Origin: Escherichia coli | GTDB lineage: Bacteria; Pseudomonadota; Gammaproteobacteria; Enterobacterales; Enterobacteriaceae | DNA length: 64,000 nt | Assembly: GCF_009931435.1 (NCBI RefSeq) | Contig: NZ_CP043414.1 | Reading direction: 5' to 3' (one strand) | Shown: positions 32,800 to 56,440 of the stretch, in pieces | Layout of the letters: each line of letters starts with the position of its first letter | Numbering within the stretch: the first letter of the stretch is position 1 | The notes under the pieces: model-generated | What the model saw: only the letters and a program-made list of their open reading frames with translations | The model's database searches: none | Told to the model about the DNA's origin: nothing | Translations under genes and position numbers: made by a program

Positions 32800-33200
32800 A
32801 GAAAATTTTTCCTTAAAGCAAATTTTATTACTTTTATTTAGCCAGATTGTTTTTGAGTTCTGTTTTCGGCTTTTATAATTACTGCAAGAAATAATTTTAT
32901 ATTTAGAGTGTTGTTTTTTATTAGAATAAATAACGTCTTCCGATACGTTTAAAACGTCAGAAAGATAAAAATATCATTTGAATTAAAAAAAGAACAAGTA
33001 GAGCATTAACCTTATCTTAAATAATAAATGGAGGCAAAAAGATTATTTTCTTTTTGCGTTTCCTTTCAAATGAAAACGATCGTCGTCTAAAATCAGCAGT
33101 ACCCCCGACAAACTCAGGGATTTTGTGTATAATTGCGGCCTTTTTCGGCAATCTGCCGTTTTTTGGCGCTTTTGCCCTGCTGACTTTTGAGGAAATCCAC

Positions 33201-33536
33201 ATGTCATTACCACACTGCCCAAAATGCAACTCCGAATACACCTACGAAGATAACGGCATGTACATCTGCCCGGAATGTGCCTACGAATGGAACGACGTAG
33301 AACCTGCACAGGAAAGCGACGAGCTGATCGTTAAAGATGCTAACGGCAATCTGCTGGCTGACGGCGACAGCGTTACCATCATTAAAGATCTGAAGGTGAA
33401 AGGTAGCTCTTCGATGCTGAAGATCGGTACCAAAGTGAAAAACATTCGCCTGGTTGAAGGCGACCACAACATCGATTGCAAAATCGACGGTTTTGGTCCG
33501 ATGAAACTGAAATCTGAGTTTGTGAAAAAGAACTGA
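33201..33536 (+). CDS. phnA: Zinc-ribbon protein PhnA/YjdM
   Basis: 111 aa from the ATG at 33201 ([31 protein letters not shown]...); CxxC...CxxC zinc ribbon; extended -10 (tgtgtataat) about 70 bp upstream. Confidence 0.9.
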
Positions 33537-33559
33537 TTGTATTGCTCAATGTAATATTG

Positions 33560-33715
33560 GCACATGATCGGTAGGCCGGATAAGGCGCTCGCGCCGCATC
33601 CGGCTACGGTGCCGACTGCCTGATGCGACGCTCGCGCGTCTTATCAGGCCTACAAATTCTCGCACCATCCGGCAACGGTGCCTAATGCGACGCTTACCGA
33701 GTCTTATCAGCCCCC
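33560..33715. repeat. BIME/REP cluster of several palindromic units
   Basis: Repeated gcctgatgcgacgc...gtcttatcaggcctac and ggtaggccggataaggcg...ccgcatccggc motifs typical of enterobacterial REP elements. Confidence 0.85.
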
Positions 33716-33775
33716 GCTCATCTGTATAATTTTCGAACTACACTTAACTGGCTTCTCTTAACTGAGGTCACCATC

Positions 33776-34219
33776 ATGCCGTTAAGTCCCTACCTCTCTT
33801 TTGCTGGTAACTGTTCCGATGCGATTGCCTATTATCAACGCACGTTGGGCGCGGAACTGCTTTATAAAATCAGCTTCGGCGAAATGCCGAAATCAGCGCA
33901 GGACAGCGCCGAGAACTGCCCTTCCGGAATGCAATTTCCCGATACCGCCATCGCTCATGCCAACGTGCGCATTGCCGGAAGCGACATCATGATGAGCGAT
34001 GCCATACCGTCAGGAAAAGCCAGCTACTCCGGCTTTACGCTGGTACTCGATTCGCAACAGGTCGAAGAAGGAAAACGCTGGTTTGACAACCTTGCCGCTA
34101 ACGGAAAAATCGAAATGGCCTGGCAGGAAACTTTCTGGGCGCATGGCTTCGGCAAAGTCACCGATAAATTTGGCGTACCGTGGATGATTAATGTCGTCAA
34201 ACAACAACCAACGCACTAA
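33776..34219 (+). CDS. yjdN: VOC/glyoxalase-family protein YjdN (PhnB)
   Basis: 147-aa ORF matching YjdN/PhnB. Confidence 0.85.
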   Translation: MPLSPYLSFAGNCSDAIAYYQRTLGAELLYKISFGEMPKSAQDSAENCPSGMQFPDTAIAHANVRIAGSDIMMSDAIPSGKASYSGFTLVLDSQQVEEGKRWFDNLAANGKIEMAWQETFWAHGFGKVTDKFGVPWMINVVKQQPTH

Positions 34220-34245
34220 CCCGCCGGGAGGCCCGCCCTCCCGCA

Positions 34246-34296
34246 CTGTCATCGAATTCCCGTTAACTCTTCATCTGTTAGTCACTTTTAGTTAAC
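34246..34296 (+). promoter_or_regulatory. Putative Pho box / phnC promoter
   Basis: CTGTCAT at 34246 and CTGTTAG at 34275 with TTAAC-containing repeats 50-100 bp upstream of phnC; consistent with PhoB control of the phn operon, exact site boundaries uncertain. Confidence 0.5.
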
Positions 34297-34351
34297 AAAA
34301 TCGTCACGATAATCCGCCACGATGGAGCCACTTTTTTAGGGAGGCTGCATC

Positions 34352-35140
34352 ATGCAAACGATTATCCGCGTCGAACAACTGAGCAAAACCTTCAATCAGC
34401 ATCAGGCGCTGCACGCGGTTGATCTGAACATTCATCACGGTGAAATGGTGGCTCTGCTTGGGCCGTCGGGTTCCGGCAAATCCACCCTTTTACGTCACTT
34501 AAGCGGCCTGATTGTCGGCGATAAAAAGCCAGAATGCCGCGTCGAACTGCTGGGCCGCACCGTCCAGCAAAATGGCCGCCTGGCCCGCGATATCCGCAAA
34601 AGCCGCGCCAACACCGGCTACATCTTCCAACAATTCAACCTGGTGAATCGCCTGAGCGTACTGGAGAACGTGCTGATTGGCGCGCTCGGCAGCACGCCGT
34701 TCTGGCGTACCTGTTTTAGCTGGTTCACCCGCGAGCAGAAACAGCGTGCGTTACAGGCACTGACTCGCGTTGGGATGGTGCACTTTGCCCATCAGCGCGT
34801 TTCCACGCTCTCCGGCGGCCAGCAGCAGCGTGTGGCGATAGCCCGTGCGCTGATGCAGCAGGCGAAGGTGATTCTGGCCGATGAACCCATCGCCTCGCTG
34901 GACCCGGAATCGGCCCGCATCGTGATGGATACCCTGCGCGACATCAACCAGAACGACGGCATCACCGTGGTGGTGACGCTGCATCAGGTGGATTACGCCC
35001 TGCGCTACTGCGAACGCATCGTCGCCCTGCGCCAGGGGCACGTCTTCTACGACGGCAGCAGCCAACAGTTTGATAACGAACGTTTTGACCATCTCTACCG
35101 CAGCATTAACCGCGTCGAAGAGAACGCGAAAGCTGCCTGA
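34352..35140 (+). CDS. phnC: Phosphonate ABC transporter ATP-binding protein
   Basis: 262-aa ORF with Walker A (GPSGSGKST), ABC signature (LSGGQQQR) and Walker B. Confidence 0.95.
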
Positions 35141-35164
35141 CATCCCCATCATTGAGGAAAACGA

Positions 35165-36181
35165 ATGAACGCTAAGATAATTGCCTCGCTGGCCTTCACC
35201 AGCATGTTCAGCCTCAGCACCCTGTTCAGCCCGGCACACGCCGAAGAGCAGGAAAAGGCGCTGAATTTCGGCATTATTTCAACGGAATCACAGCAAAACC
35301 TGAAACCGCAATGGACGCCTTTCCTGCAAGATATGGAGAAGAAACTGGGCGTAAAGGTCAACGCCTTCTTTGCTCCGGACTACGCGGGCATTATCCAGGG
35401 GATGCGCTTCAATAAAGTGGATATCGCCTGGTACGGCAATCTGTCGGCGATGGAAGCGGTGGATCGCGCCAACGGTCAGGTCTTCGCCCAGACGGTCGCG
35501 GCGGATGGATCGCCGGGTTACTGGAGCGTGTTGATCGTCAACAAAGACAGTCCGATCAACAACCTGAACGATCTGCTGGCGAAGCGTAAAGATCTCACCT
35601 TTGGCAATGGCGATCCTAACTCCACCTCTGGCTTCCTCGTCCCCGGCTACTACGTCTTCGCCAAAAACAATATCTCCGCCAGCGACTTCAAGCGCACCGT
35701 CAACGCCGGGCATGAAACCAACGCGCTGGCCGTCGCCAACAAGCAGGTGGATGTGGCGACCAACAACACCGAGAACCTCGACAAGCTGAAAACCTCCGCA
35801 CCGGAGAAGCTCAAAGAACTGAAGGTGATCTGGAAATCGCCGCTGATCCCAGGCGATCCGATCGTCTGGCGCAAAAATCTTTCCGAAACCACCAAAGACA
35901 AGATCTACGACTTCTTTATGAACTACGGCAAAACGCCGGAAGAGAAAGCGGTGCTGGAGCGCCTGGGCTGGGCCCCGTTCCGCGCCTCCAGCGACCTGCA
36001 ACTGGTGCCAATTCGCCAGCTCGCGCTGTTTAAAGAGATGCAGGGCGTGAAAGGCAATAAGGGACTGAATGAGCAGGACAAGCTGGCAAAAACCACCGCC
36101 ATTCAGGCGCAACTGGATGATTTGGACCGCCTGAACAACGCGTTAAGCGCAATGAGTTCGGTGAGTAAAGCGGTGCAGTAA
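35165..36181 (+). CDS. phnD: Phosphonate ABC transporter periplasmic binding protein
   Basis: 338-aa ORF with N-terminal signal peptide; matches PhnD. Confidence 0.95.
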   Translation: MNAKIIASLAFTSMFSLSTLFSPAHAEEQEKALNFGIISTESQQNLKPQWTPFLQDMEKKLGVKVNAFFAPDYAGIIQGMRFNKVDIAWYGNLSAMEAVDRANGQVFAQTVAADGSPGYWSVLIVNKDSPINNLNDLLAKRKDLTFGNGDPNSTSGFLVPGYYVFAKNNISASDFKRTVNAGHETNALAVANKQVDVATNNTENLDKLKTSAPEKLKELKVIWKSPLIPGDPIVWRKNLSETTKDKIYDFFMNYGKTPEEKAVLERLGWAPFRASSDLQLVPIRQLALFKEMQGVKGNKGLNEQDKLAKTTAIQAQLDDLDRLNNALSAMSSVSKAVQ

Positions 36182-36187
36182 TGTGCT

Positions 36188-36295
36188 CGATCGGTCCCCT
36201 CTCCCTTGAGGGAGAGGGTTAGGGTGAGGGGGGAAATACGCACGCTGATGCCCTCACCCCGGCCCTCTCCTACAGGGAGAGGGAGAAAACATTAA
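36188..36295. repeat. GC-rich nested palindromic element between phnD and phnE (family not assigned)
   Basis: Three inverted-repeat pairs: cccctctccc/gggagaggg, agggtgagggg/ccctcacccc, ccctctcc/gggagaggg. Confidence 0.6.
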
Positions 36296-36307
36296 ACGGA
36301 GCCAAAC

Positions 36308-37087
36308 ATGCAAACCATCACCATCGCCCCACCCAAGCGCAGCTGGTTCTCGATCTTCAGCTGGGCCGTTGTTCTCGCCGTACTGGTCGTCTCGTGGCAG
36401 GGCGCGGAAATGGCCCCGCTCACGCTGATTAAAGACGGCGGCAACATGGCGACGTTCGCCGCCGACTTCTTCCCGCCCGATTTCAGCCAGTGGCAGGATT
36501 ACCTCACCGAAATGGCCGTCACGCTGCAAATCGCCGTCTGGGGCACTGCGCTGGCAGTCGTTCTCTCCATCCCCTTCGGCCTGATGAGCGCCGAAAACCT
36601 GGTGCCGTGGTGGGTTTACCAGCCCGTTCGCCGCCTGATGGACGCCTGCCGCGCCATTAACGAGATGGTCTTCGCCATGCTGTTCGTGGTCGCCGTCGGT
36701 CTCGGTCCGTTCGCTGGCGTACTGGCGCTGTTTATCCACACCACCGGCGTGCTCTCCAAACTGCTTTCCGAAGCGGTAGAAGCAATTGAACCCGGCCCGG
36801 TGGAAGGTATTCGCGCCACTGGTGCCAACAAGCTCGAAGAGATCCTCTATGGCGTGCTGCCGCAGGTGATGCCGCTGCTGATCTCCTACTCCCTCTATCG
36901 CTTCGAATCCAACGTCCGTTCGGCCACCGTTGTTGGCATGGTCGGCGCTGGCGGGATCGGCGTCACGCTGTGGGAAGCGATTCGCGGTTTCCAGTTCCAG
37001 CAAACCTGCGCCCTGATGGTGCTGATTATCGTCACGGTCAGCCTGCTGGATTTCCTCTCTCAACGGTTGCGTAAGCACTTTATCTGA
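36308..37087 (+). CDS. phnE: Phosphonate ABC transporter permease, intact reading frame
   Basis: Uninterrupted 259-aa polytopic membrane ORF matching PhnE. Confidence 0.9.
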
Positions 37088-37107
37088 TAAGCGAGGCATT
37101 GATAGCT

Positions 37108-37833
37108 ATGCACTTGTCTACACATCCGACCAGCTACCCAACACGCTATCAGGAGATAGCCGCAAAACTTGAGCAGGAGCTTCGTCAACACTACCGCTGC
37201 GGCGACTATCTTCCCGCCGAGCATCAACTGGCGGCACGCTTTGAGGTGAATCGCCACACCCTGCGCCGCGCCATCGACCAACTGGTGGAAAAAGGCTGGG
37301 TACAGCGCCGTCAGGGCGTCGGCGTGCTGGTGCTGATGCGCCCGTTCGATTACCCGCTCAACGCCCAGGCGCGTTTTAGCCAGAACCTGCTGGATCAGGG
37401 TAGCCATCCCACCAGCGAAAAACTGCTGTCGGTGCTGCGCCCGGCCTCCGGCCACGTCGCTGACGCGCTGGGGATAACCGAGGGCGAGAACGTTATCCAC
37501 CTGCGCACCCTGCGTCGGGTCAACGGCGTCGCACTCTGTTTAATCGACCACTACTTTGCGGACCTCACTCTCTGGCCGACGCTGCAACGCTTCGACAGCG
37601 GCTCGCTGCACGATTTTTTGCACGAGCAAACGGGAATTGCGCTGCGCCGCAGCCAGACGCGGATCAGCGCCCGCCGCGCCCAGGCCAAAGAGTGCCAGCG
37701 TCTTGAAATTCCGAATATGTCGCCGCTGCTGTGCGTGCGCACCCTTAACCACCGTGACGGTGAAAGCAGCCCGGCGGAGTACTCCGTCAGCCTGACGCGC
37801 GCCGACATGATTGAATTCACCATGGAGCACTGA
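37108..37833 (+). CDS. phnF: GntR-family repressor of the phn operon
   Basis: 241 aa from the ATG at 37108 (MHLSTHPTSYPTRYQEIAAK...); N-terminal GntR HTH. Confidence 0.9.
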   Translation: MHLSTHPTSYPTRYQEIAAKLEQELRQHYRCGDYLPAEHQLAARFEVNRHTLRRAIDQLVEKGWVQRRQGVGVLVLMRPFDYPLNAQARFSQNLLDQGSHPTSEKLLSVLRPASGHVADALGITEGENVIHLRTLRRVNGVALCLIDHYFADLTLWPTLQRFDSGSLHDFLHEQTGIALRRSQTRISARRAQAKECQRLEIPNMSPLLCVRTLNHRDGESSPAEYSVSLTRADMIEFTMEH

Positions 37834-38286
37834 ATGCACGCAGATACCGCGACCCGCCAGCACTGGATGTCCGTGCTGGCGCACAGCCAACCGGCTGAAC
37901 TGGCTAACCGCCTTAAAGCGCTAAACATCACCGCCGACTATGACATGATCCGCGCCGCCGAAACCGGCCTGGTACAGATTCAGGCGCGAATGGGTGGCAC
38001 CGGCGAACGCTTTTTTGCTGGCGACGCTACGCTCACCCGCGCCGCTGTACGCCTTACTGACGGCACGCTCGGCTACAGCTGGGTGCTGGGGCGCGACAAA
38101 CAGCACGCCGAACGCTGCGCGCTGATTGACGCGCTGATGCAGCAATCTCGCCACTTTCAAAACTTATCAGAAACCCTTATTGCCCCGCTGGACGCTGACC
38201 GTATGGCACGCATTGCCGCACGCCAGGCCGAAGTGAACGCCAGTCGGGTCGACTTCTTTACGATGGTTCGCGGAGACAACGCATGA
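37834..38286 (+). CDS. phnG: C-P lyase core complex subunit PhnG
   Basis: 150-aa ORF starting immediately after the phnF stop (tgaATG). Confidence 0.9.
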
Positions 38287-38867
38287 CCCTGGAAACCGCT
38301 TTTATGCTTCCCGTGCAGGATGCCCAGCACAGTTTTCGTCGCCTGTTAAAGGCCATGAGCGAGCCGGGCGTGATTGTCGCCCTGCATCAACTCAAACGCG
38401 GCTGGCAGCCGCTGAATATCGCCACCACCAGCGTGCTGCTGACGCTGGCCGATAACGACACGCCGGTGTGGCTTTCTGCGCCATTAAGTAACGATATCGT
38501 CAGCCAGAGCCTGCGTTTTCATACCAACGCGCCGCTGGTCAATCAGCCGGAACAGGCGACCTTCGCAGTGACGGATGAGGCGATTGCCAGCGAGCAGCTC
38601 AACGCCCTTTCCATCGGCACCGCCGTTGCGCCGGAAGCCGGTGCGACGTTGATTTTACAGGTCACCAGCCTGAGCGGCGGACGCATGCTGCGCCTCACCG
38701 GCGCGGGTATTGCCGAAGAACGGATGATCGCCCCGCAACTGCCGGAGTGCATTCTGCACGAACTCACCGAGCGCCCGCACCCGTTCCCGCTCGGCATCGA
38801 CCTGATCCTGACCTGCGGCGAGCGCCTGCTGGCTATCCCGCGAACCACTCATGTGGAGGTGTGCTGA
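38283..38867 (+). CDS. phnH: C-P lyase core complex subunit PhnH
   Basis: 194-aa ORF with 4-nt overlap to phnG. Confidence 0.9.
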
Positions 38868-39931
38868 TGTACGTTGCCGTGAAAGGGGGCGAAAAGGCGA
38901 TCGACGCCGCCCACGCCCTGCAAGAGAGCCGACGCCGGGGCGATACTGATTTGCCTGAACTGAGCGTCGCCCAGATTGAACAGCAGCTTAATCTCGCGGT
39001 GGATCGCGTGATGACCGAAGGCGGCATTGCCGACCGTGAACTGGCGGCACTAGCGCTGAAACAGGCCAGCGGCGATAACGTTGAAGCGATTTTCCTGTTG
39101 CGCGCCTACCGCACGACGCTGGCAAAGCTGGCGGTGAGCGAGCCGCTCGACACCACCGAGATGCGGCTCGAACGCCGTATTTCGGCGGTTTATAAAGACA
39201 TTCCCGGCGGCCAGTTGCTTGGCCCGACCTACGACTACACCCATCGCCTGCTCGATTTCACCCTGCTGGCGAATGGCGAAGCGCCGACGCTGACCACCGC
39301 CGACAGCGAGCAAGCCCCATCGCCGCACGTTTTCAGCCTGCTGGCGCGTCAGGGGCTGGCGAAGTTTGAAGAGGATAGCGGCGCACAGCCGGACGACATC
39401 ACCCGCACGCCGCCGGTTTACCCCTGCTCACGTTCTTCCCGTTTGCAGCAGCTCATGCGCGGAGACGAAGGCTATTTGCTGGCGCTGGCCTACTCCACCC
39501 AGCGTGGTTACGGACGCAATCACCCGTTCGCAGGCGAAATCCGCAGTGGCTATATCGACGTGTCTATTGTGCCGGAAGAGCTGGGATTTGCGGTGAACAT
39601 CGGCGAACTGCTGATGACCGAGTGTGAAATGGTCAACGGTTTTATCGACCCGCCGGATGAGCCGCCGCACTTCACGCGCGGCTACGGGCTGGTGTTCGGC
39701 ATGAGCGAGCGCAAAGCGATGGCAATGGCGCTGGTTGACCGCGCTCTACAAGCCCCGGAGTACGGCGAGCACGCGACAGGCCCGGCGCAGGATGAAGAGT
39801 TCGTGCTGGCGCATGCCGACAACGTCGAAGCCGCAGGCTTTGTCTCGCACCTCAAACTCCCGCACTACGTCGATTTCCAGGCCGAACTGGAGCTACTCAA
39901 ACGTCTGCAACAGGAGCAGAACCATGGCTAA
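38867..39931 (+). CDS. phnI: C-P lyase subunit PhnI (ribose-1-methylphosphonate 5-triphosphate synthase component)
   Basis: 354 aa from the ATG at 38867 ([16 protein letters not shown]...), overlapping the phnH stop; the ORF-track start at 38747 is an extension. Confidence 0.9.
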   Translation: MYVAVKGGEKAIDAAHALQESRRRGDTDLPELSVAQIEQQLNLAVDRVMTEGGIADRELAALALKQASGDNVEAIFLLRAYRTTLAKLAVSEPLDTTEMRLERRISAVYKDIPGGQLLGPTYDYTHRLLDFTLLANGEAPTLTTADSEQAPSPHVFSLLARQGLAKFEEDSGAQPDDITRTPPVYPCSRSSRLQQLMRGDEGYLLALAYSTQRGYGRNHPFAGEIRSGYIDVSIVPEELGFAVNIGELLMTECEMVNGFIDPPDEPPHFTRGYGLVFGMSERKAMAMALVDRALQAPEYGEHATGPAQDEEFVLAHADNVEAAGFVSHLKLPHYVDFQAELELLKRLQQEQNHG

Positions 39932-40769
39932 TCTGAGCGGCTACAACTTTGCCTACCTCGACGAGCAGACCAAACGTATGATCCGCCGCGCCATCTTAAA
40001 AGCGGTGGCGATCCCCGGTTATCAGGTGCCGTTTGGCGGGCGCGAGATGCCGATGCCATACGGCTGGGGAACTGGTGGTATCCAGCTTACCGCCAGCGTG
40101 ATTGGCGAAAGCGACGTGTTGAAGGTGATTGACCAGGGCGCGGATGACACCACCAACGCCGTATCAATTCGCAACTTTTTCAAGCGCGTGACCGGGGTAA
40201 ACACCACTGAACGTACGGATGATGCGACGCTTATCCAGACGCGCCACCGCATCCCCGAAACGCCGCTGACCGAAGATCAGATCATTATTTTCCAGGTGCC
40301 GATCCCCGAACCGCTGCGCTTTATCGAGCCGCGCGAAACGGAGACCCGCACTATGCACGCGCTGGAGGAGTACGGCGTGATGCAGGTGAAACTGTATGAA
40401 GATATCGCCCGCTTCGGTCATATCGCCACCACCTACGCCTATCCGGTGAAGGTGAACGGACGCTACGTAATGGACCCATCGCCGATCCCGAAATTTGATA
40501 ACCCGAAAATGGACATGATGCCCGCCCTGCAACTGTTTGGCGCGGGGCGCGAGAAGCGTATTTATGCGGTGCCGCCGTTTACCCGCGTGGAAAGCCTCGA
40601 TTTCGACGATCATCCGTTCACCGTTCAGCAGTGGGATGAACCCTGCGCCATCTGCGGATCGACCCACAGCTATCTCGATGAAGTGGTGCTGGATGACGCC
40701 GGAAACCGCATGTTTGTCTGTTCCGATACCGATTATTGCCGCCAACAGAGCGAGGCGAAAAGCCAATGA
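39924..40769 (+). CDS. phnJ: C-P lyase PhnJ (radical-SAM-dependent C-P bond cleavage enzyme)
   Basis: 281 aa from the ATG at 39924 (MANLSGYNFAYLDEQTKRMIRR...); C-terminal Cys cluster CxxC...C...C. Confidence 0.9.
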   Translation: MANLSGYNFAYLDEQTKRMIRRAILKAVAIPGYQVPFGGREMPMPYGWGTGGIQLTASVIGESDVLKVIDQGADDTTNAVSIRNFFKRVTGVNTTERTDDATLIQTRHRIPETPLTEDQIIIFQVPIPEPLRFIEPRETETRTMHALEEYGVMQVKLYEDIARFGHIATTYAYPVKVNGRYVMDPSPIPKFDNPKMDMMPALQLFGAGREKRIYAVPPFTRVESLDFDDHPFTVQQWDEPCAICGSTHSYLDEVVLDDAGNRMFVCSDTDYCRQQSEAKSQ

Positions 40770-41524
40770 ATCAACCGTTACTTTCGGTCAATAACCTGAC
40801 CCACCTCTACGCACCGGGCAAAGGCTTCAGCGACGTTTCTTTTGATTTATGGCCGGGGGAAGTGCTGGGCATCGTCGGGGAATCCGGTTCCGGGAAGACC
40901 ACGCTGCTGAAATCAATCTCCGCGCGCCTGACGCCGCAGCAGGGGGAGATTCGCTATGAAAACCGTTCCCTCTATGGCATGAGCGAAGCCGACCGCCGCC
41001 GTTTACTGCGCACCGAATGGGGCGTGGTACATCAGCATCCGCTCGACGGCCTGCGTCGCCAGGTCTCGGCAGGCGGCAATATCGGCGAACGGCTGATGGC
41101 GACCGGGGCGCGTCATTACGGCGATATTCGCGCCACCGCGCAGAAGTGGCTGGAAGAGGTGGAGATTCCCGCCAACCGGATCGACGACCTGCCGACCACT
41201 TTTTCCGGCGGTATGCAGCAGCGTTTGCAGATTGCCCGCAACCTGGTGACGCATCCGAAGCTGGTGTTTATGGATGAACCGACCGGCGGGCTGGATGTAT
41301 CAGTGCAAGCGCGCCTGCTCGATCTGCTGCGCGGTCTGGTGGTGGAGCTGAACCTGGCGGTGGTGATTGTCACCCACGATCTGGGCGTCGCCCGCCTGCT
41401 GGCGGACCGTTTGCTGGTGATGAAGCAAGGGCAAGTGGTGGAGAGTGGGTTAACCGACCGCGTGCTCGACGACCCGCATCACCCGTATACCCAGCTGCTG
41501 GTGTCATCGGTTTTGCAGAATTGA
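40766..41524 (+). CDS. phnK: C-P lyase-associated ABC-type ATPase PhnK
   Basis: 252 aa from the ATG at 40766 (MNQPLLSVNNL...); Walker A GESGSGKTT. Confidence 0.9.
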   Translation: MNQPLLSVNNLTHLYAPGKGFSDVSFDLWPGEVLGIVGESGSGKTTLLKSISARLTPQQGEIRYENRSLYGMSEADRRRLLRTEWGVVHQHPLDGLRRQVSAGGNIGERLMATGARHYGDIRATAQKWLEEVEIPANRIDDLPTTFSGGMQQRLQIARNLVTHPKLVFMDEPTGGLDVSVQARLLDLLRGLVVELNLAVVIVTHDLGVARLLADRLLVMKQGQVVESGLTDRVLDDPHHPYTQLLVSSVLQN

Positions 41525-41535
41525 GCCTTGCTTGT

Positions 41536-41690
41536 GTCGGGTGGCGCTGCGCTTACCCGACCTACGGTACATGTAGGCCGGATAAGGCGTAGCCGCCATC
41601 CGGCTTATCAGGCCTACAAAACCATCGTAATACATTGATATTGATTCATTTGTAGGCCGGATAAGGCGCAGCCGCCATCCGGCAAAAACA
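41536..41690. repeat. BIME/REP cluster inside the phn operon, between phnK and phnL
   Basis: Tandem/inverted copies of gtaggccggataaggcg...ccgccatccggc and ttatcaggcctac REP motifs. Confidence 0.85.
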
Positions 41691-41703
41691 CGAAGAGGCC
41701 AAA

Positions 41704-42384
41704 ATGATCCGCGTCGAAAACGTCAGTAAAACCTTCATCCTGCACCAACAAAACGGCGTGCGCCTGCCCGTCTTACAACGCGCCTCGCTCACCGTCAACG
41801 CGGGCGAATGCGTGGTGCTCCACGGCCATTCCGGCAGCGGCAAATCAACCCTGCTGCGCTCGCTGTACGCTAACTATCTGCCCGACGAAGGGCAAATTCA
41901 GATCAAACATGGTGACGAGTGGGTAGACCTGGTCACCGCGCCAGCGCGCAAAGTGGTGGAAATCCGCAAAACCACCGTCGGCTGGGTGAGCCAGTTTCTG
42001 CGGGTCATCCCGCGTATTTCGGCGCTGGAAGTGGTAATGCAGCCGCTGCTCGATACCGGCGTTCCGCGTGAAGCCTGCGCCGCTAAAGCCGCCCGTCTGC
42101 TCACCCGCCTGAACGTGCCGGAACGTCTGTGGCACCTGGCGCCATCGACCTTCTCCGGCGGCGAACAGCAGCGCGTCAACATCGCGCGCGGCTTTATCGT
42201 CGATTACCCCATTCTGCTGCTCGACGAACCTACTGCCTCGCTGGACGCCAAAAACAGCGCCGCGGTGGTGGAACTGATCCGCGAAGCTAAAACCCGCGGC
42301 GCAGCCATCGTCGGCATCTTCCACGACGAAGCCGTACGCAATGACGTCGCCGACCGCCTCCACCCAATGGGAGCCTCTGCATGA
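41704..42384 (+). CDS. phnL: C-P lyase-associated ABC-type ATPase PhnL
   Basis: 226-aa ORF with Walker [10 protein letters not shown]. Confidence 0.9.
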
Positions 42385-43517
42385 TTATCAATAACGTCAA
42401 ACTGGTGCTGGAAAACGAAGTGGTACACGGTTCGCTGGAGGTGCAGGACGGCGAAATTCGCGCCTTTGCCGAAAGCCAGAGCCGCCTGCCAGAAGCGATG
42501 GACGGCGAAGGTGGCTGGCTGCTGCCGGGGCTGATTGAGCTGCATACCGACAACCTCGATAAATTCTTCACTCCGCGCCCGAAAGTGGACTGGCCTGCCC
42601 ACTCAGCGATGAGCAGCCACGACGCGCTGATGGTGGCGAGCGGCATCACCACGGTGCTGGATGCCGTGGCGATTGGCGACGTGCGCGACGGCGGCGATCG
42701 GCTGGAGAATCTGGAGAAGATGATCAACGCCATCGAAGAGACGCAGAAACGCGGGGTCAACCGCGCCGAGCACCGTCTGCACCTGCGCTGTGAACTGCCG
42801 CATCACACTACGCTGCCGCTGTTTGAAAAACTGGTGCAGCGCGAGCCGGTCACGCTGGTGTCGCTGATGGACCACTCGCCGGGCCAGCGCCAGTTCGCCA
42901 ATCGCGAGAAGTATCGCGAATATTACCAGGGCAAATACTCGCTCACCGATGCGCAGATGCAGCAGTACGAAGAGGAACAACTGGCGCTTGCCGCACGCTG
43001 GTCGCAGCCGAATCGCGAAACCATCGCCGCAATATGCCGCGCGCGACAAATTGCCCTCGCCAGCCACGATGATGCTACGCACGAGCACGTTGCCGAATCC
43101 CACCAGCTTGGCAGCGTAATCGCCGAATTTCCCACCACGTTCGAAGCGGCGGAAGCTTCGCGCAAGCATGGCATGAATGTATTGATGGGCGCGCCGAATA
43201 TTGTGCGCGGCGGTTCGCACTCCGGCAACGTGGCGGCAAGCGAACTGGCACAGCTTGGCCTGCTGGATATCCTCTCTTCCGACTACTACCCCGCCAGCCT
43301 GCTCGATGCGGCATTTCGCGTCGCCGATGACGAGAGCAACCGCTTTACGCTGCCGCAGGCGGTGAAGCTGGTGACTAAAAATCCGGCGCAGGCGCTTAAT
43401 CTTCAGGATCGCGGGGTGATTGGCGAGGGCAAACGCGCCGACCTGGTGCTGGCGCATCGCAAGGGCAACCACATTCATATCGATCACGTCTGGCGTCAGG
43501 GTAAAAGGGTGTTCTGA
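42381..43517 (+). CDS. phnM: PhnM, amidohydrolase-family ribosyl-methylphosphonate triphosphate diphosphatase
   Basis: 378-aa ORF with 4-nt overlap to phnL; matches PhnM. Confidence 0.9.
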
Positions 43518-44074
43518 TGACGGGAAAACTGATTTGGTTAATGGGGGCCTCTGGCTCCGGAAAAGACAGTCTGTTGACGGAACTCCGCCAGCGGGAACAA
43601 ACTCAGCTACTGGTAGCGCATCGCTACATCACGCGCGCCGCCAGCGCCGGAAGTGAAAACCATATCGCCCTGAGCGAGCAGGAGTTTTTTACCCGCGCGG
43701 GGCAGAACCTTCTGGCCTTAAGCTGGCACGCCAACGGCCTGTATTATGGCATCGGCGTCGAGATTGACCTCTGGCTACACGCCGGATTCGACGTGGTGGT
43801 CAACGGCTCACGCGCGCATTTGCCGCAGGCGCGGGCGCGCTATCAATCGGCTCTGCTGCCTATCTGTTTACAGGTGTCACCGGAGATCCTGCGCCAGCGT
43901 CTGGAAAACCGTGGTCGTGAAAATGCCAGTGAAATTAACGCCCGGCTGGCGCGCGCTGCCCGCTATACTCCTCAGGATTGTCTTACGCTCAATAATGACG
44001 GCAGCCTGCGCCAGTCGGTCGACAAGCTGCTGACGCTGATTCATCAGAAGGAGAAACACCATGCCTGCTTGTGA
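43517..44074 (+). CDS. phnN: Ribose 1,5-bisphosphate phosphokinase PhnN
   Basis: 185-aa ORF with P-loop GASGSGKDS; overlaps the phnM stop. Confidence 0.9.
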
Positions 44075-44495
44075 GCTTCGTCCGGCCACGCAGTACGACA
44101 CCGACGCGGTTTACGCGCTGATTTGTGAGCTAAAACAGGCGGAGTTTGACCACCATGCGTTTCGCGTGGGCTTTAACGCCAACCTGCGCGACCCGAACAT
44201 GCGCTACCATCTGGCGCTGCTGGAAGGCGAAGTTGTCGGCATGATCGGCCTGCATTTGCAGTTTCATCTGCATCATGTCAACTGGATCGGCGAAATTCAG
44301 GAACTGGTGGTGATGCCGCAGGCGCGCGGTCTGAACGTCGGCAGTAAATTACTGGCATGGGCCGAAGAAGAAGCCCGCCAGGCCGGGGCCGAAATGACCG
44401 AGCTTTCCACCAACGTCAAGCGCCACGACGCGCACCGTTTCTATCTGCGCGAAGGCTACGAGCAGAGCCACTTCCGCTTCACCAAGGCGCTGTAA
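44061..44495 (+). CDS. phnO: Aminoalkylphosphonate N-acetyltransferase PhnO (GNAT)
   Basis: 144-aa ORF overlapping phnN by 14 nt. Confidence 0.9.
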
Positions 44496-44496
44496 C

Positions 44497-45255
44497 ATGA
44501 GCCTGACCCTCACACTTACTGGCACTGGCGGCGCACAGGGTGTTCCCGCATGGGGCTGTGAGTGCGCGGCCTGCGCCAGAGCGCGGCGCTCACCGCAGTA
44601 TCGCCGCCAGCCATGCAGCGGCGTCGTGAAGTTTAACGACGCGATCACCCTGATCGACGCCGGACTGCACGATCTCGCCGATCGCTGGTCGCCCGGATCG
44701 TTCCAGCAGTTTTTGCTGACGCACTACCATATGGATCACGTGCAGGGGCTGTTTCCGCTGCGCTGGGGCGTGGGCGATTCGATCCCGGTCTACGGCCCGC
44801 CGGATGAACAGGGCTGCGACGATCTGTTTAAACATCCGGGCCTGCTTGATTTCAGCCACACGGTGGAGCCATTTGTGATGTTTGATTTGCAGGGATTACA
44901 GGTCACGCCGCTGCCGCTCAACCATTCGAAACTCACTTTCGGCTATCTACTGGAAACGGCACATAGCCGGGTGGCGTGGCTGTCTGACACCGCAGGCCTG
45001 CCGGAAAAAACGGTGAAATTTTTATGCAATAATCAGCCACAGGTAATGGTGATTGATTGCTGCCACCCACCGCGCGCGAATTCGCCACGCAATCACTGTG
45101 ATTTAAACACCGTGCTGGCGCTGAATGAAGTTATCCGCTCGCCGTGCGTGGTTCTGACACATATCAGCCATCAGTTTGATGCGTGGCTGATGGAGAACAT
45201 ACTGCCGTCAGGGTTTGAGGCGGGGTTTGATGGGATGGAGATTGGGGTGGAGTGA
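44497..45255 (+). CDS. phnP: Metallo-beta-lactamase-fold cyclic phosphodiesterase PhnP
   Basis: 252-aa ORF with HxHxDH motif ([10 protein letters not shown]). Confidence 0.9.
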
Positions 45256-45289
45256 TGGGTGAGGGGCGATGCCTGCTCTAAACTCAACA

Positions 45290-45598
45290 TCACCGCCCAT
45301 ACTCATCTTCCATTCTCCGCTCTTCATCTTCTAGCTGCCGACGCTCCTGATCCAGCTGGCGCTGGCGATCGTCCAGCTGCCTGCGGCGATCTTCATATTG
45401 TCTGCGCCGATCGTCGTTCACTTCACGCTGCCAGCCGTCGTCGCGCCAATCTTCATAGTCTCGCCCACGGTCAGGGTTATAAGCATCGTTAATCGCCTGC
45501 TGAATATTGCCAATGGTGTCGTCGATAATATCGGCCTGGGCCGGAACGGTGGACAGCGTGAGCAGGGTGAATAAAAGAAATAGCGGAAAACGTTTCAT
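45290..45598 (-). CDS. yjdP: Small secreted low-complexity protein YjdP (Arg/Asp/Glu/Gln-rich)
   Basis: 102-aa ORF with signal peptide (MKRFPLFLLFTLLTLSTVPAQA) and charged repeats (RRRQYEDRRRQLDDRQRQLDQERRQLEDEE). Confidence 0.8.
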   Translation of the reverse strand: MKRFPLFLLFTLLTLSTVPAQADIIDDTIGNIQQAINDAYNPDRGRDYEDWRDDGWQREVNDDRRRQYEDRRRQLDDRQRQLDQERRQLEDEERRMEDEYGR

Positions 45599-45666
45599 TA
45601 GCCAACCTCAAAAAGAAACTCTATCCACATTAGTCATTACTCATCCATGCAAGTAGTGGATGAATC

Positions 45667-45984
45667 TCAATTTTTCCGCTGCTCTATTGCCGTAATCGCC
45701 TCCACGCGTTGTTGATGACGACCGCCTTCGTACTGCGCGCCCAGCCACGCATCCACAATCATTTTTGCCAGTTCGAGGCCAACCACTCGTGAACCAAAAG
45801 CCAGTGCAACTTCACTGGCGTAATGCGGATAATCAGTGCGCTCTGACGACCTGGTTTCTTTATCAATCCCCTCACTCATTGACCATGAATAAAAGGCTGG
45901 CACAGCAACGCAGAATCCTGCGGTGCCAGCGACATGACCGCCCATTGCTCCGGTACGTTTTTTAATAAGAAACACCGGTTGCAT
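45667..45984 (-). pseudogene. rpiB: rpiB-like remnant: the C-terminal ~45 residues and a short N-proximal block match ribose-5-phosphate isomerase B, but the central part is missing and the N-terminus is diverged
   Basis: Translation ...ETRSSERTDYPHYASEVALAFGSRVVGLELAKMIVDAWLGAQYEGGRHQQRVEAITAIEQRKN matches RpiB segments as I recall them, but the ORF is 105 aa against ~149 aa for RpiB, with no match to the central catalytic region. Confidence 0.55.
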
Positions 45985-46236
45985 TGATTAATTGTGCTCA
46001 GTATTTGCCGAAGTACAATATATATAATAAATATATAAAACACCTCATATTATTTACAGAGATAATAAATTCGCGTACTTTTCCCTCTTCAGCACAAATG
46101 CCTAATAAAATGGCTCGTTCCGCTCACACTTCCACTTATTAAAATCGCAATTTCCCAATTATGATAACGCCAGCTTTAAATGACGTATTTTGCATGGATT
46201 ACATATTTACGACACAAATGATAAATGGAGATTTAT

Positions 46237-48222
46237 ATGAATAACTCTCGGTTATTCCGTTTGAGCAGGATTGTTATTGCGTTAACTGCCGCCAGCGGCA
46301 TGATGGTAAATACCGCTCACGCAACAGATGAAGCGAAAGCCGCCACTCAATATACCCAACAGGTTAATCAGAATTACGCCAAATCATTACCGTTTAGCGA
46401 TCGTCAGGATTTTGACGATGCCCAGCGCGGATTTATCGCCCCGCTGCTGGATGAAGGTATTCTGCGCGATGCGAATGGCAAAGTTTACTACCGCGCGAAT
46501 GATTACAAATTTGATATTAATGCCGCTGCGCCGGAAACCGTAAACCCCAGCCTGTGGCGTCAGTCGCAGATCAACGGCATTTCTGGTCTGTTCAAAGTCA
46601 CCGATAAAATGTATCAGGTGCGCGGCCAGGATATCTCTAACATTACATTCGTTGAGGGCGAGAAAGGCATTATTGTTATCGACCCACTGGTGACGCCGCC
46701 TGCCGCAAAAGCCGCACTTGACCTTTACTTCCAGCATCGTCCGCAAAAACCGATTGTTGCTGTTATTTACACCCACAGCCACGCCGACCATTATGGCGGT
46801 GTGAAAGGCATTATCTCTGAAGCGGATGTTAAATCTGGCAAAGTGCAGGTGATCGCTCCGGCAGGCTTTATGGACGAAGCCATCAGCGAAAACGTGCTGG
46901 CGGGTAACATCATGAGCCGCCGTGCGCTCTACTCTTACGGTCTGTTACTGCCGCACAACGCGCAAGGCAACGTGGGCAACGGCCTGGGCGTGACGCTGGC
47001 AACGGGCGACCCGAGCATTATTGCGCCAACCAAAACGATTGTCAGAACTGGCGAGAAGATGATTATCGACGGCCTGGAGTTTGACTTCCTGATGACTCCG
47101 GGTAGCGAAGCGCCAGCCGAAATGCACTTCTATATTCCGGCCCTGAAAGCCCTGTGTACCGCCGAAAACGCCACGCATACCCTGCACAACTTCTACACCC
47201 TGCGCGGCGCGAAAACCCGCGATACCAGCAAGTGGACAGAGTATCTGAACGAAACGCTGGATATGTGGGGTAACGACGCGGAAGTACTGTTTATGCCGCA
47301 CACCTGGCCGGTCTGGGGCAATAAGCATATCAATGATTATATTGGTAAATATCGCGATACTATCAAATACATTCACGACCAGACCCTGCACCTGGCGAAC
47401 CAGGGTTACACCATGAATGAAATTGGCGACATGATTAAGCTGCCACCTGCGCTTGCCAATAACTGGGCCAGCCGCGGCTATTACGGTTCTGTTAGCCACA
47501 ACGCCCGTGCAGTGTATAACTTCTATCTCGGCTATTATGACGGCAATCCAGCTAACCTACATCCGTACGGTCAGGTGGAGATGGGCAAACGTTACGTGAA
47601 AGCGCTGGGCGGTTCCGCCCGTGTCATCAACCTGGCGCAAGAAGCGAACAAGCAAGGGGATTACCGCTGGTCAGCAGAGTTGCTGAAACAGGTGATTGCC
47701 GCCAATCCGGGTGACCAGGTGGCGAAGAATCTGCAAGCGAATAACTTTGAACAGCTGGGCTATCAGGCCGAGTCCGCCACCTGGCGCGGTTTCTACCTGA
47801 CCGGCGCAAAAGAGCTGCGCGAAGGGGTGCATAAGTTCAGCCACGGCACCACGGGTTCTCCGGACACCCTTCGCGGGATGTCGGTCGAAATGCTGTTCGA
47901 CTTTATGGCCGTTCGCCTCGATAGCGCGAAAGCCGCAGGTAAGAATATCAGCCTGAACTTCAATATGAGCAACGGCGATAACCTCAACCTGACGCTGAAC
48001 GATAGCGTGCTTAACTACCGTAAAACGCTGCAACCTGAAGCCAACGCCTCTTTCTACATCAGCCGTGAAGATCTTCACGCCGTGCTGACCGGACAAGCCA
48101 AAATGGCGGATCTGGTAAAAGCGAAGAAAGCCAAAATTATTGGCAATGGCGCGAAACTGGAAGAAATTATTGCCTGTCTGGATAATTTCGATTTGTGGGT
48201 GAATATCGTAACCCCAAATTAA
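46237..48222 (+). CDS. yjcS: Putative alkyl/aryl sulfatase (metallo-beta-lactamase fold) YjcS
   Basis: 661 aa from the ATG at 46237 ([29 protein letters not shown], signal peptide); HxHxDH motif ([10 protein letters not shown]). Confidence 0.9.
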
Positions 48223-48229
48223 TGCCACT

Positions 48230-48270
48230 CACTTTTGGGGGCGCTTAAGCCCCCAAAAGTATTTATTTTA
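48230..48270 (+). terminator. Rho-independent terminator after yjcS
   Basis: cttttgggggc / gcccccaaaag inverted repeat followed by a T-rich tract (tatttatttt). Confidence 0.65.
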
Positions 48271-48430
48271 AAAATACATACAACCAATTAATACATAAAA
48301 TATATAAGTTATGAATGCGGTGGCTGAATAAAGCTATTTTTATTCATCGAGAAAATAGCCATACTGACGCCTTCAATGGATATTGATATTCACTACAGAT
48401 ATTGTTCGCAGCAGACAGGATGTATTTAAT

Positions 48431-48706
48431 ATGCCAACAGTTCTCTCTCGCATGGCGATGCAACTCAAAAAAACAGCCTGGATAATTCCCGTCTTCATGG
48501 TTTCGGGATGCTCATTATCTCCGGCAATCCCGGTGATCGGCGCTTATTATCCCAGCTGGTTTTTCTGCGCCATTGCCAGCCTTATTTTGACGCTCATCAC
48601 GAGGCGAATTATTCAGCGGGCAAATATCAATCTGGCATTTGTCGGAATTATTTATACCGCCCTTTTTGCTCTCTACGCCATGCTGTTCTGGCTGGCATTT
48701 TTCTAA
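48431..48706 (+). CDS. ytcA: Small lipoprotein-like membrane protein YtcA
   Basis: 91 aa from the ATG at 48431 (MPTVLSRMAMQLKKTAWIIPVFMVSGCSL...), lipobox-like SGC; directly upstream of mdtN. Confidence 0.75.
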   Translation: MPTVLSRMAMQLKKTAWIIPVFMVSGCSLSPAIPVIGAYYPSWFFCAIASLILTLITRRIIQRANINLAFVGIIYTALFALYAMLFWLAFF

Positions 48707-48724
48707 TCTATTTGAGACGCGCTC

Positions 48725-49756
48725 ATGGAAAGTACGCCGAAAAAAGCTCCTCGCAGTAAATTCCCTGCTCTGTTAGTGGTTGCGTTGGCGCTGGTTGCCC
48801 TTGTTTTCGTTATCTGGCGCGTAGACAGTGCGCCATCAACTAATGACGCCTACGCGTCAGCAGATACCATTGATGTGGTGCCGGAAGTCAGCGGTCGCAT
48901 TGTAGAACTGGCGGTCACCGACAACCAGGCGGTGAAACAGGGCGATTTGCTGTTCCGCATCGACTCGCGCCCGTACGAAGCCAATCTGGCGAAAGCCGAA
49001 GCCTCCCTCGCGGCGCTGGATAAGCAAATTATGCTCACCCAGCGTAGCGTTGACGCACAACAGTTTGGTGCCGACTCGGTTAATGCCACGGTAGAAAAAG
49101 CCCGTGCCGCCGCGAAACAGGCCAGTGATACATTACGCCGCACCGAGCCATTACTGAAAGAAGGTTTCGTCTCAGCGGAAGACGTTGACCGTGCAAGAAC
49201 GGCGCAGCGCGCCGCAGAAGCAGATCTTAATGCCGTATTGTTGCAGGCGCAGTCAGCCGCCAGCGCCGTCAGCGGCGTGGATGCGCTGGTGGCGCAACGT
49301 GCGGCAGTGGAAGCGGATATTGCGTTGACGAAACTGCATCTGGAAATGGCGACCGTTCGCGCGCCGTTTGATGGCCGAGTCATTTCCCTCAAAACCTCGG
49401 TTGGGCAATTTGCTTCTGCCATGCGCCCTATTTTCACCCTAATCGACACTCGTCACTGGTACGTGATCGCCAACTTCCGCGAAACCGATCTGAAAAATAT
49501 TCGCTCGGGTACACCCGCAACGATTCGCCTGATGAGCGACAGCGGCAAAACCTTCGAGGGTAAAGTGGATTCGATTGGCTACGGCGTGCTACCGGATGAC
49601 GGCGGTCTGGTGCTGGGCGGCCTGCCGAAAGTGTCTCGTTCTATTAACTGGGTCCGCGTTGCCCAGCGTTTTCCGGTCAAAATCATGGTTGAAAAACCTG
49701 ACCCGGAAATGTTCCGCATCGGCGCTTCGGCAGTCGCTAATCTTGAGCCGCAATAA
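48725..49756 (+). CDS. mdtN: Efflux pump membrane-fusion (periplasmic adaptor) protein
   Basis: 343-aa ORF with N-terminal TM anchor and coiled-coil; matches MdtN. Confidence 0.9.
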   Translation: MESTPKKAPRSKFPALLVVALALVALVFVIWRVDSAPSTNDAYASADTIDVVPEVSGRIVELAVTDNQAVKQGDLLFRIDSRPYEANLAKAEASLAALDKQIMLTQRSVDAQQFGADSVNATVEKARAAAKQASDTLRRTEPLLKEGFVSAEDVDRARTAQRAAEADLNAVLLQAQSAASAVSGVDALVAQRAAVEADIALTKLHLEMATVRAPFDGRVISLKTSVGQFASAMRPIFTLIDTRHWYVIANFRETDLKNIRSGTPATIRLMSDSGKTFEGKVDSIGYGVLPDDGGLVLGGLPKVSRSINWVRVAQRFPVKIMVEKPDPEMFRIGASAVANLEPQ

Positions 49757-56398: not shown

Positions 56399-56440
56399 TG
56401 TAGGCCTGATAAGACGCGGCAAGCGTCGCATCAGGCATCC
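56399..56440. repeat. Single REP element between yjcO and gltP
   Basis: gtaggcctgataagacgcggcaagcgtcgcatcaggc matches the REP consensus. Confidence 0.8.

Follow-up and report, generated by a model that had tools for sequence, protein, structure and literature searches.

A mosaic REP cluster at the phnK-phnL junction of an Escherichia coli phosphonate operon and its probable effect on expression

REP/BIME clusters within operons are a textbook feature of enterobacterial genomes. The one that lies between phnK and phnL (hereafter the K/L junction) in the 64-kb stretch of DNA analysed here, hereafter the window, raises the question of whether REP elements tune expression within an operon or are merely tolerated there, a matter that is debated for REPs generally. 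Taken alone the cluster is of little weight, since K-12 already has a BIME at the phnK-phnL junction. The diversity of alleles found at this one intercistronic site, however, means that phnK-phnL, and phnD-phnE with it, can serve conveniently as a natural allelic series suited to the question. Judged largely by analogy with REPs whose effects have been described, the K/L cluster probably tunes, rather than switches, expression of the phosphonate operon.

Architecture and classification of the K/L cluster

The genes yjdM, yjdN and phnC-P were identified through annotated E. coli records to which their DNA is 97% identical. Two of these genes, phnK (40766-41524, + strand, 252 aa, encoding a PhnK that in identical form is very common in E. 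coli) and phnL (41704-42384, + strand, 226 aa), were delimited from the list of open reading frames. They are separated by 179 nt (41525-41703, + strand), from the end of the phnK TGA (41522-41524) to the phnL ATG starting at 41704, and this spacer is made up of an atypical BIME with short flanks. The + strand is the sense strand of the mRNA and all REP units are read on it.

The spacer contains three complete REP hairpins and a fourth, truncated REP. The first, REP-A (41536-41565), is an inverted REP with the stem GTCGGGT/ACCCGAC, the loop GGCGCTGCGCT and CTAC on its 3′ side, folding at -16.3 kcal/mol. Its stem starts 11 nt past the phnK stop codon (41524 to 41536), which is within the distance of less than 16 nt past the stop that marks a 'translation-linked REP', and these 11 nt are unpaired. 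A 7-nt linker leads to REP-B (41573-41604, GTAGGCCGGATAAGGCGTAGCCGCCATCCGGC), a y-type REP with a 5′ GTAG that belongs to direct-repeat family D1 (-19.5 kcal/mol, z = -3.4). Fused to the end of REP-B, a motif scan detected a truncated inverted z-type REP (41604-41617), of which the 3′ half CTTATCAGGCCTAC alone is present. This is followed by an AT-rich, L-type linker of 34 nt between CTAC and GTAG (41618-41651), and then by REP-D (41652-41683, -18.2 kcal/mol), a y-type REP that is 97% identical to REP-B and lies exactly 79 nt downstream of it. The half z iREP, the L linker and the y REP together form an amplifiable unit of 79 nt (41605-41683, + strand). Within the linker, the minus strand carries a perfect match, TATCAATGTATTA, to the IHF consensus WATCAANNNNTTR (41628-41640). 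This predicted site is weak on its own, because the consensus is matched four times in the 64 kb against 2.6 matches expected window-wide. On the 3′ side of REP-D lies AAAAACACGAA, then the Shine-Dalgarno GAGG (41695-41698) and finally the phnL ATG (41704-41706). This phnL leader (41684-41706, + strand) is unstructured, the start region of the gene (41684-41720) folding at only -3.1 kcal/mol (z = 0.07).

A sequence-only reading had placed a REP/BIME cluster of at least three palindromes between phnK and phnL, at 41536-41690, and this was borne out. The REP core GCCGGATAAGGCG (a 13-mer, at most one mismatch allowed) was found three times in the 64 kb against 0.12 expected, and none of 100 shuffles reached three. 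The minimum free energy of the spacer RNA was -88.2 kcal/mol, compared with -57.3 ± 4.9 for shuffles (z = -6.36), and an independent calculation on the same RNA gave -86.0 kcal/mol (z = -7.8); single REPs fold at -16 to -20 kcal/mol. Therefore, the observation is correct, and so are its coordinates, which agree with where the first stem starts and the last REP ends. Strong folding extends to all K/L alleles tested, with z between -5 and -8. A long-range helix between the 5′ flank and the phnL Shine-Dalgarno was present in the minimum free energy structure of the window but absent from the fold of CP087880.1, and was dropped.

Classification followed the definitions in PMC3333891. There, REPs are imperfect palindromes, 20-40 nt long, in which the conserved tetranucleotide GTAG precedes the foot of the stem on the 5′ side or, in inverted copies, CTAC follows it on the 3′ side. 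REP-B and REP-D are 32 nt long with a 5′ GTAG, REP-A is 30 nt long with a 3′ CTAC, and their stems contain mismatches or bulges. Their location is extragenic, and 33571-33713 and 56400-56436 are two other REP loci in the window. A motif scan of the 64 kb detected the REP-A type only once. The arrangement is that of a BIME, with inverted REP-A, 7 nt, REP-B, the truncated iREP, 34 nt and REP-D in alternating orientation. The same source describes BIME-1 (RIP/RIB) as a single-copy element consisting of a z1 iREP, a long L linker that often has an IHF site and a y REP, and an atypical BIME as a chimera of BIME-1 and BIME-2 in tandem copies whose number varies by strain. The K/L cluster has an L-like linker, a y REP and a perfect IHF consensus, which align with canonical BIME-1 copies. 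However, its z iREP is reduced to the 3′ 14 nt and the unit is not a single copy, lying within a larger cluster here and twice in tandem in CP087880.1. Nor does it correspond to BIME-2, which has a short S linker with z2 and y REPs and s/l/r flanks in tandem copies, whereas the K/L cluster has a long L-type linker and half a z REP. Its mosaic composition and its tandem 79-nt unit, 97% conserved and present with two or three y REPs, are those of an atypical BIME. Under these definitions the K/L element is, by its sequence, an atypical BIME and a mosaic of enterobacterial REP units, that is, a known kind of element.

A closer inspection of E. coli relatives of the individual units is in keeping with this. 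The unit of iREP tail, L linker and y REP shares approximately 82% identity with the BIME-1 units of E. coli, of which each genome has a median of 8 places. The linker aligns with the L linker of these copies, and REP-B with their y REP. Those at gyrB-yidB and exbD-yghA resemble 41604-41683 at about this identity and share the CTAC-L-GTAG layout, and E. coli BIME-1 copies have a near-consensus IHF site at the position aligned with 41628-41640. The differences are that BIME-1 has a complete z iREP, the left arm of which is replaced here by the right arm of REP-B in the alignment, and that BIME-1 is described as occurring in single copies, whereas this unit is tandemly amplified and variable in number. 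With BIME-2 and atypical BIMEs the cluster has in common the alternating orientation, the tandem 97% unit and the varying copy number. It differs from them in REP-A, a type that E. coli chromosomes almost entirely lack: of 23 weak matches, 22 were on plasmids.

Alleles at the junction in E. coli and other genera

From 5,394 E. coli records, 60 were sampled evenly and surveyed at the K/L site; 59 matched both flanks and one matched the phnK flank alone. Approximately 53 of the sampled records have a spacer of 110 nt and approximately six (about 10%) a spacer of 176-177 nt. None of the 59 records in which both flanks matched had an empty site. The whole allele of the window was found in none of 5,426 complete E. 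coli genomes, and the K/L spacer of the window is, on these comparisons, a rare allele. The sole E. coli sharing its right half is RMDEC465, the spacer of which is a hybrid of the left REP of K-12 and the right half of the window.

The 110-nt spacer of K-12 consists of a y iREP, a 13-nt linker and a z REP. As in the window, an inverted REP lies a few nucleotides past the phnK stop and is followed by a linker and a GTAG REP, and the last REP is followed, after some 11-20 nt, by the conserved GAGGC..ATG of phnL; the fold of the spacer is also comparable (z = -6.2). However, every REP unit differs, and the K-12 spacer is without the truncated REP, the L linker, the IHF consensus and the 79-nt repeat. 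A full-text literature search for phnK and phnL together with REP found no mention, and the supplements of RepRanger have no phnK or phnL entries.

A close counterpart of the window allele was found in CP087880.1, which has an identical PhnL and an otherwise near-identical spacer of 258 nt rather than 179 nt. Alignment of the two reveals a clean indel of 79 nt, equal to one more unit, such that two units follow REP-B in CP087880.1 and one in the window. Going by this alignment the 79-nt unit is amplifiable, with two against three y REPs between related genomes. A comparison of REP copy number across strains had been proposed with the first observation as a check, and the number does vary: two or three y REPs in this pair, and a two-REP BIME in K-12. 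Metagenomes scanned for the L-type linker, as a 50-mer and as a 34-mer with N positions, gave no match, and the amplification is therefore visible solely in CP087880.1.

The 176-177-nt allele, represented by GZM7 and 2020CK-00188, occupies the same junction and folds at -87.7 kcal/mol, and the phnL leader is intact. In contrast to the REPs, however, it is a GC-rich palindromic repeat of an unrelated family, which lacks the GTAG tag and has arms of CCCTCTCCC/GGGAGAGGG and GGGTGAGGGG; we take it to be possibly BoxC. At the K/L junction of Pseudocitrobacter faecalis the same GC-rich family is amplified to 298 nt. The units of the window allele lead to yet other genera. REP-A is also found at the K/L junction of Enterobacter cloacae, with a version of covarying stem in Citrobacter werkmanii, and the second REP at K/L of C. 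werkmanii is identical to REP-D. On account of these matches, the window allele looks like a two-REP BIME of the Citrobacter type whose two REPs enclose one further y REP and part of a BIME-1 unit.

The window belongs to E. coli in the broad sense. Its flanking parts reach no more than 99.1% identity to any RefSeq E. coli, with most E. coli at 95-99%. The phn region reaches at best 97.2-97.5% and is patchy, at 94-100% per 250 nt. In the closest strain, 2020CK-00188, the yjdM-yjdN BIME is 100% identical to that of the window and the K/L spacer is unalignable. To judge from these identities, the K/L spacer was replaced independently of its surroundings and has been exchanged between lineages. 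At least four non-homologous or rearranged palindromic alleles occur at the site in E. coli and close relatives.

The junction was also surveyed in species-representative genomes, where the matches listed yielded 77 usable loci from 77 species, with no Escherichia representative. In these 77 listed loci phnK and phnL are separated by a median of 22 nt; they overlap in four and lie at least 40 nt apart in 22. The H/I, I/J, L/M and M/N junctions overlap in most of the same loci, and figures for the J/K junction are less reliable owing to the choice of start codon. Of the junctions from phnH to phnN, K/L alone is usually free of overlap. A gap of only 7-9 nt is found in the close relatives Citrobacter sp. 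FP75, Leclercia and Cedecea neteri (TAAGAGGCCAACATG), as well as in Hafnia and other Enterobacterales. Palindromes of their own are found at K/L in Enterobacter, Kluyvera, Cedecea sulfonylureivorans, C. werkmanii, several Pseudomonas, Mesorhizobium and Pelagibacterium. Relatives, even those whose spacer is 9 nt long, retain the GAGGC..ATG block of phnL. Different repeat families occupy the junction in distant Proteobacteria, whereas some sister genera have next to nothing there; from the repeats present, K/L is filled repeatedly by palindromic repeats of whichever family a genome carries. On the simplest reading K/L is a junction of long standing, short and free of overlap, at which phnL has a ribosome-binding site of its own, and this would make it the sole place among phnH-phnN where a mobile palindrome spares both genes and overlaps.

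The sequence-only reading had described the cluster as interrupting an otherwise tightly coupled run of genes. K/L is the only sizeable gap from phnF to phnP, where the neighbouring junctions overlap by 1-14 nt (from the list of open reading frames and the annotation of K-12 and 2020CK-00188). However, the description fails further upstream, as phnD and phnE are separated by 126 nt with a repeat of their own.

Predicted effect on expression and alternative explanations

We favour, as the more probable account overall, a mosaic BIME in a permissive junction that would produce a modest step in expression, upstream above downstream, and that is dispensable and probably weakly selected, if at all. 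The K/L cluster would be transcribed within the Pho-induced phnC-P mRNA and would fold there into very stable hairpins. These would break the termination-reinitiation coupling between phnK and phnL, leaving phnL dependent on its own free Shine-Dalgarno. They would also block 3′-to-5′ exonucleases, such that the phnC-K message outlives the phnL-P part, and the untranslated stretch that they expose may attenuate some transcription, partly via Rho. The net outcome would be a modest step between the upstream and downstream parts with no true terminator.

Attenuation and stabilisation both have precedents in bioRxiv 10.64898/2026.03.23.713779. REP325, the neighbouring yjdM-yjdN BIME and the best experimental model for a cluster of this sort, acts there as a partial, partly Rho-dependent terminator into yjdN and as a stabiliser of yjdM mRNA, and tandem gene pairs separated by REPs have a median log2 upstream/downstream ratio of 0.96 compared with -0.09 in controls. 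The same study finds large context-dependent variance in REP effects and no uniform effect on half-life. For the phn operon itself, K-12 under phosphate starvation makes phnC-P as one transcript, with coverage that declines along the operon and is read through K/L (PMC3734233). At low expression, the units assembled in the same work include phnGHIJK and phnLMNOP, which end and begin exactly at K/L, and these breaks may stem partly from unmappable repeat reads.

PhnK and PhnL are present at 1:1 in the Phn(GHIJKL)2 complex (PMC9947105) and there is thus no obvious stoichiometric reason for making less PhnL; an argument from stoichiometry that set the core complex against the accessory enzymes was likewise weakened by this structure. 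Moreover, with a gap of 7-9 nt in some Enterobacterales, the pathway can do without structure at K/L. A selected or necessary role is opposed by the almost empty sites of sister genera, by the way unrelated elements stand in for one another and by the 1:1 ratio of PhnK to PhnL, and the cluster is clearly dispensable.

The main alternative is a neutral passenger, a selfish or junk repeat sitting in a tolerant gap with no measurable effect on phn and no clean route of loss. Such a passenger would be expected to be replaced by non-homologous elements from strain to strain, to be missing from related genera with 7-9 nt at the site and to differ in copy number between near-identical loci. All of this is seen, and K/L may simply be the available non-overlapping junction through which induced K-12 transcription passes in any case. 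On the other hand, no empty site was found among the 59 flank-matched E. coli records, and D/E and K/L are both occupied in the three strains compared. Given REP325 and the genome-wide data, mRNA hairpins of -16 to -20 kcal/mol are also unlikely to be fully silent. We regard neutrality as a serious possibility, though not a probable one.

An effect on expression could also fall on phnK itself rather than on the balance between the two parts of the operon. In this case ribosomes would stall at the hairpin 11 nt past the stop and PhnK would be lowered through tmRNA tagging. According to the summary of Liang et al. 2015 given in PMC12306157, a gene is translated less when a REP follows its stop codon at less than 16 nt, and the REP-A stem begins at 41536 with the stop codon ending at 41524. 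Moreover, a first hairpin some 5-12 nt past the stop is also found in K-12, C. werkmanii, E. cloacae and Kluyvera. However, the proximity is not independent evidence, since any insert in the ancestral 9-nt gap before the Shine-Dalgarno must adjoin the stop. Such a loss of PhnK is unlikely to be the main consequence of the cluster.

A role at the level of DNA is less likely still. Here IHF would sit on the L linker and gyrase or Pol I on the REPs, giving topological relief or an insulator in a strongly induced operon of 11 kb. The perfect IHF consensus at 41628-41640 is placed as in the L linkers of E. coli BIME-1. According to PMC3333891, IHF sites are frequent in such linkers, and the proteins that bind REPs include IHF, Pol I and gyrase. 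However, the IHF match is close to chance expectation for the window (4 against 2.6), and the K-12 allele and the GC-rich allele occupy the junction without an L linker. Moreover, a nucleoid role once proposed for REP325 was not confirmed (bioRxiv 10.64898/2026.03.23.713779). We consider this reading very improbable.

The modest step that we favour involves no true terminator, and a scan of 41300-41900 agrees with this. No intrinsic terminator, that is, a GC-rich hairpin with a U tract, was found on either strand of this interval, the 3′ neighbour of REP-D being AAAAAC without a U tract, and no sigma-70-like promoter was found in the same scan. An internal promoter and an intrinsic terminator were both rejected on this basis. 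A small RNA gene at K/L was likewise rejected, as the Rfam scan gave a sub-threshold naRNA4 match alone (RF02564, minus strand 41535-41605, 26.7 bits, E = 0.16, gathering score 59.5). Hence a real boundary, at which phnC-K would be terminated and phnLMNOP started from an internal promoter, or an naRNA-like small RNA encoded, is scarcely credible: the low-expression units of K-12 and the weak naRNA4-like match point towards it, and the negative scan, the score far under the threshold and the single phnC-P transcript of induced K-12 all stand against it.

The phnD-phnE and yjdM-yjdN repeats

K/L is not the only junction of the operon to hold a strongly folding repeat. The phnD-phnE spacer (36182-36307, 126 nt) folds at -68.3 kcal/mol (z = -5.8) and contains a GC-rich palindromic repeat (36193-36288, + strand), which is no REP and belongs to the family that fills K/L in other E. 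coli. In E. coli genomes the median number of places with this family is 9. The occupant of phnD-phnE is a REP pair in K-12 and the GC-rich repeat in 2020CK-00188 and the window. Taking both junctions together, K-12 has REP pairs at each, 2020CK-00188 has the GC-rich repeat at each and the window has one of each. Repeats at these two places divide the operon into phnCD, phnE-K and phnL-P.

The only mildly unusual aspect of the K/L site is that some folding repeat, of any family, is present in all of the flank-matched sampled records. That K/L is always filled in this sample, and D/E in three strains, leaves some room for selection at both junctions for a strongly folding element whatever its sequence family, an idea that we hold to be doubtful but worth stating. 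Were it true, mobile palindromes would have been recruited convergently, and independently of family, as interchangeable 'expression steps', and the operon would be expressed in three tiers of phnCD, phnE-K and phnL-P.

The REPs of malE-malF and hisJ-hisQ, reported by Newbury et al. in 1987, are the classical intercistronic stabilisers. They follow the gene for a periplasmic binding protein that is needed in excess, and their position thus corresponds to phnD-phnE in the phn operon, not to phnK-phnL. The likeness to K/L is that REPs in a polycistronic mRNA would, by analogy, shield the upstream segment from 3′ exonucleases and give differential expression within an operon.

A second BIME had been placed by the sequence-only reading upstream of yjdN, at 33560-33715, and it proved to be real. 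It lies in the yjdM-yjdN spacer (33571-33713, + strand) and has three REPs: a y REP (33571-33604), a z2 iREP (33618-33653) and a degenerate z2 iREP (approximately 33680-33713). With Rfam naRNA4 (RF02564) it scores 99.2 bits (E = 9e-18) against a gathering score of 59.5. It is the counterpart of REP325, which like the K/L cluster belongs to the REP superfamily and forms an intra-operon tandem BIME between co-directional genes, 8 kb upstream of K/L. The two differ in that REP325 has 12 hairpins in K-12 and its counterpart in the window reaches the naRNA4 threshold, whereas the K/L cluster does not. The counterpart is a short one, with a yjdM-yjdN spacer of 239 nt in the window against 657 nt in K-12.

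Mosaic ancestry of the phn region

Identity between window positions 33000-46000 and the closest E. coli ranges from 89.6% to 100% per 250 nt; the phn region is a recombination mosaic. The phn DNA of Pseudocitrobacter faecalis shares 92-93% identity with the window, a value that seems high across genera and for which horizontal exchange of the operon might be the cause. A hybrid spacer between phnK and phnL is found in E. coli RMDEC465 (positions 400-566 of its record), in which the left REP is of the K-12 type, while the sequence is that of the window from the L linker (the long linker of BIME-1 type) through the y REP into the beginning of phnL. Since this spacer is part K-12-like and part window-like, its structure points to a recombination breakpoint within the repeat cluster. 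Separately, IS621 is annotated inside the phn region of the RMDEC465 record.

Repeat content of the phnD-phnE spacer

The phnD-phnE spacer of the window (36182-36307) holds a GC-rich palindromic repeat (element at approximately 36193-36288) consisting of CCCCTCTCCC..GGGAGAGGGTTAGGGTGAGGGG and its inverted partner, and folding gives -68 kcal/mol (z -5.8). In contrast, the K-12 spacer carries a z REP and y iREP (inverted REP) pair (13229-13336, minus strand, in the K-12 phn-region record L004). The GC-rich family occupies 9 places per E. coli genome (median) and may be BoxC. Members of this family also occupy the phnK-phnL spacer of E. coli strains GZM7 and 2020CK-00188 (the latter being the closest strain across phn), and an amplified version is present in the phnK-phnL spacer of P. 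faecalis.

The annotated ATG of the K-12 phnE1 pseudogene (L004 13282-13280) lies just ahead of or within the y iREP, and the phnE start annotated in other strains is an ATG 52 nt downstream of it. Unlike the K-12 pseudogene, phnE of the window appears intact: its ORF (36308-37087) encodes 259 aa, the length of the annotated phnE of 2020CK-00188.

Other REP loci and the region downstream of phnP

The BIME between yjdM and yjdN (33571-33713; Rfam 99.2 bits) is the counterpart of K-12 REP325/naRNA4. It contains only three REPs in a spacer of 239 nt, whereas the K-12 spacer spans 657 nt and its REP325 has 12 hairpins; identity to 2020CK-00188 is 100%. The sole further clear REP locus within the 64-kb window is a z2-type REP, GCCTGATGCGACG ... 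CTTATCAGGCCTAC, at 56400-56436 on the minus strand.

No match to the K-12 rpiB-als gene block was found 3′ of phnP and yjdP (45200-50000). The only remnant in its place is an RpiB-like ORF of 105 aa (45667-45984, minus strand), followed by an ORF of 665 aa (46225-48222) and then by mdtO, mdtP and fdhF. This truncated RpiB-family gene also appears in the annotation of 2020CK-00188.
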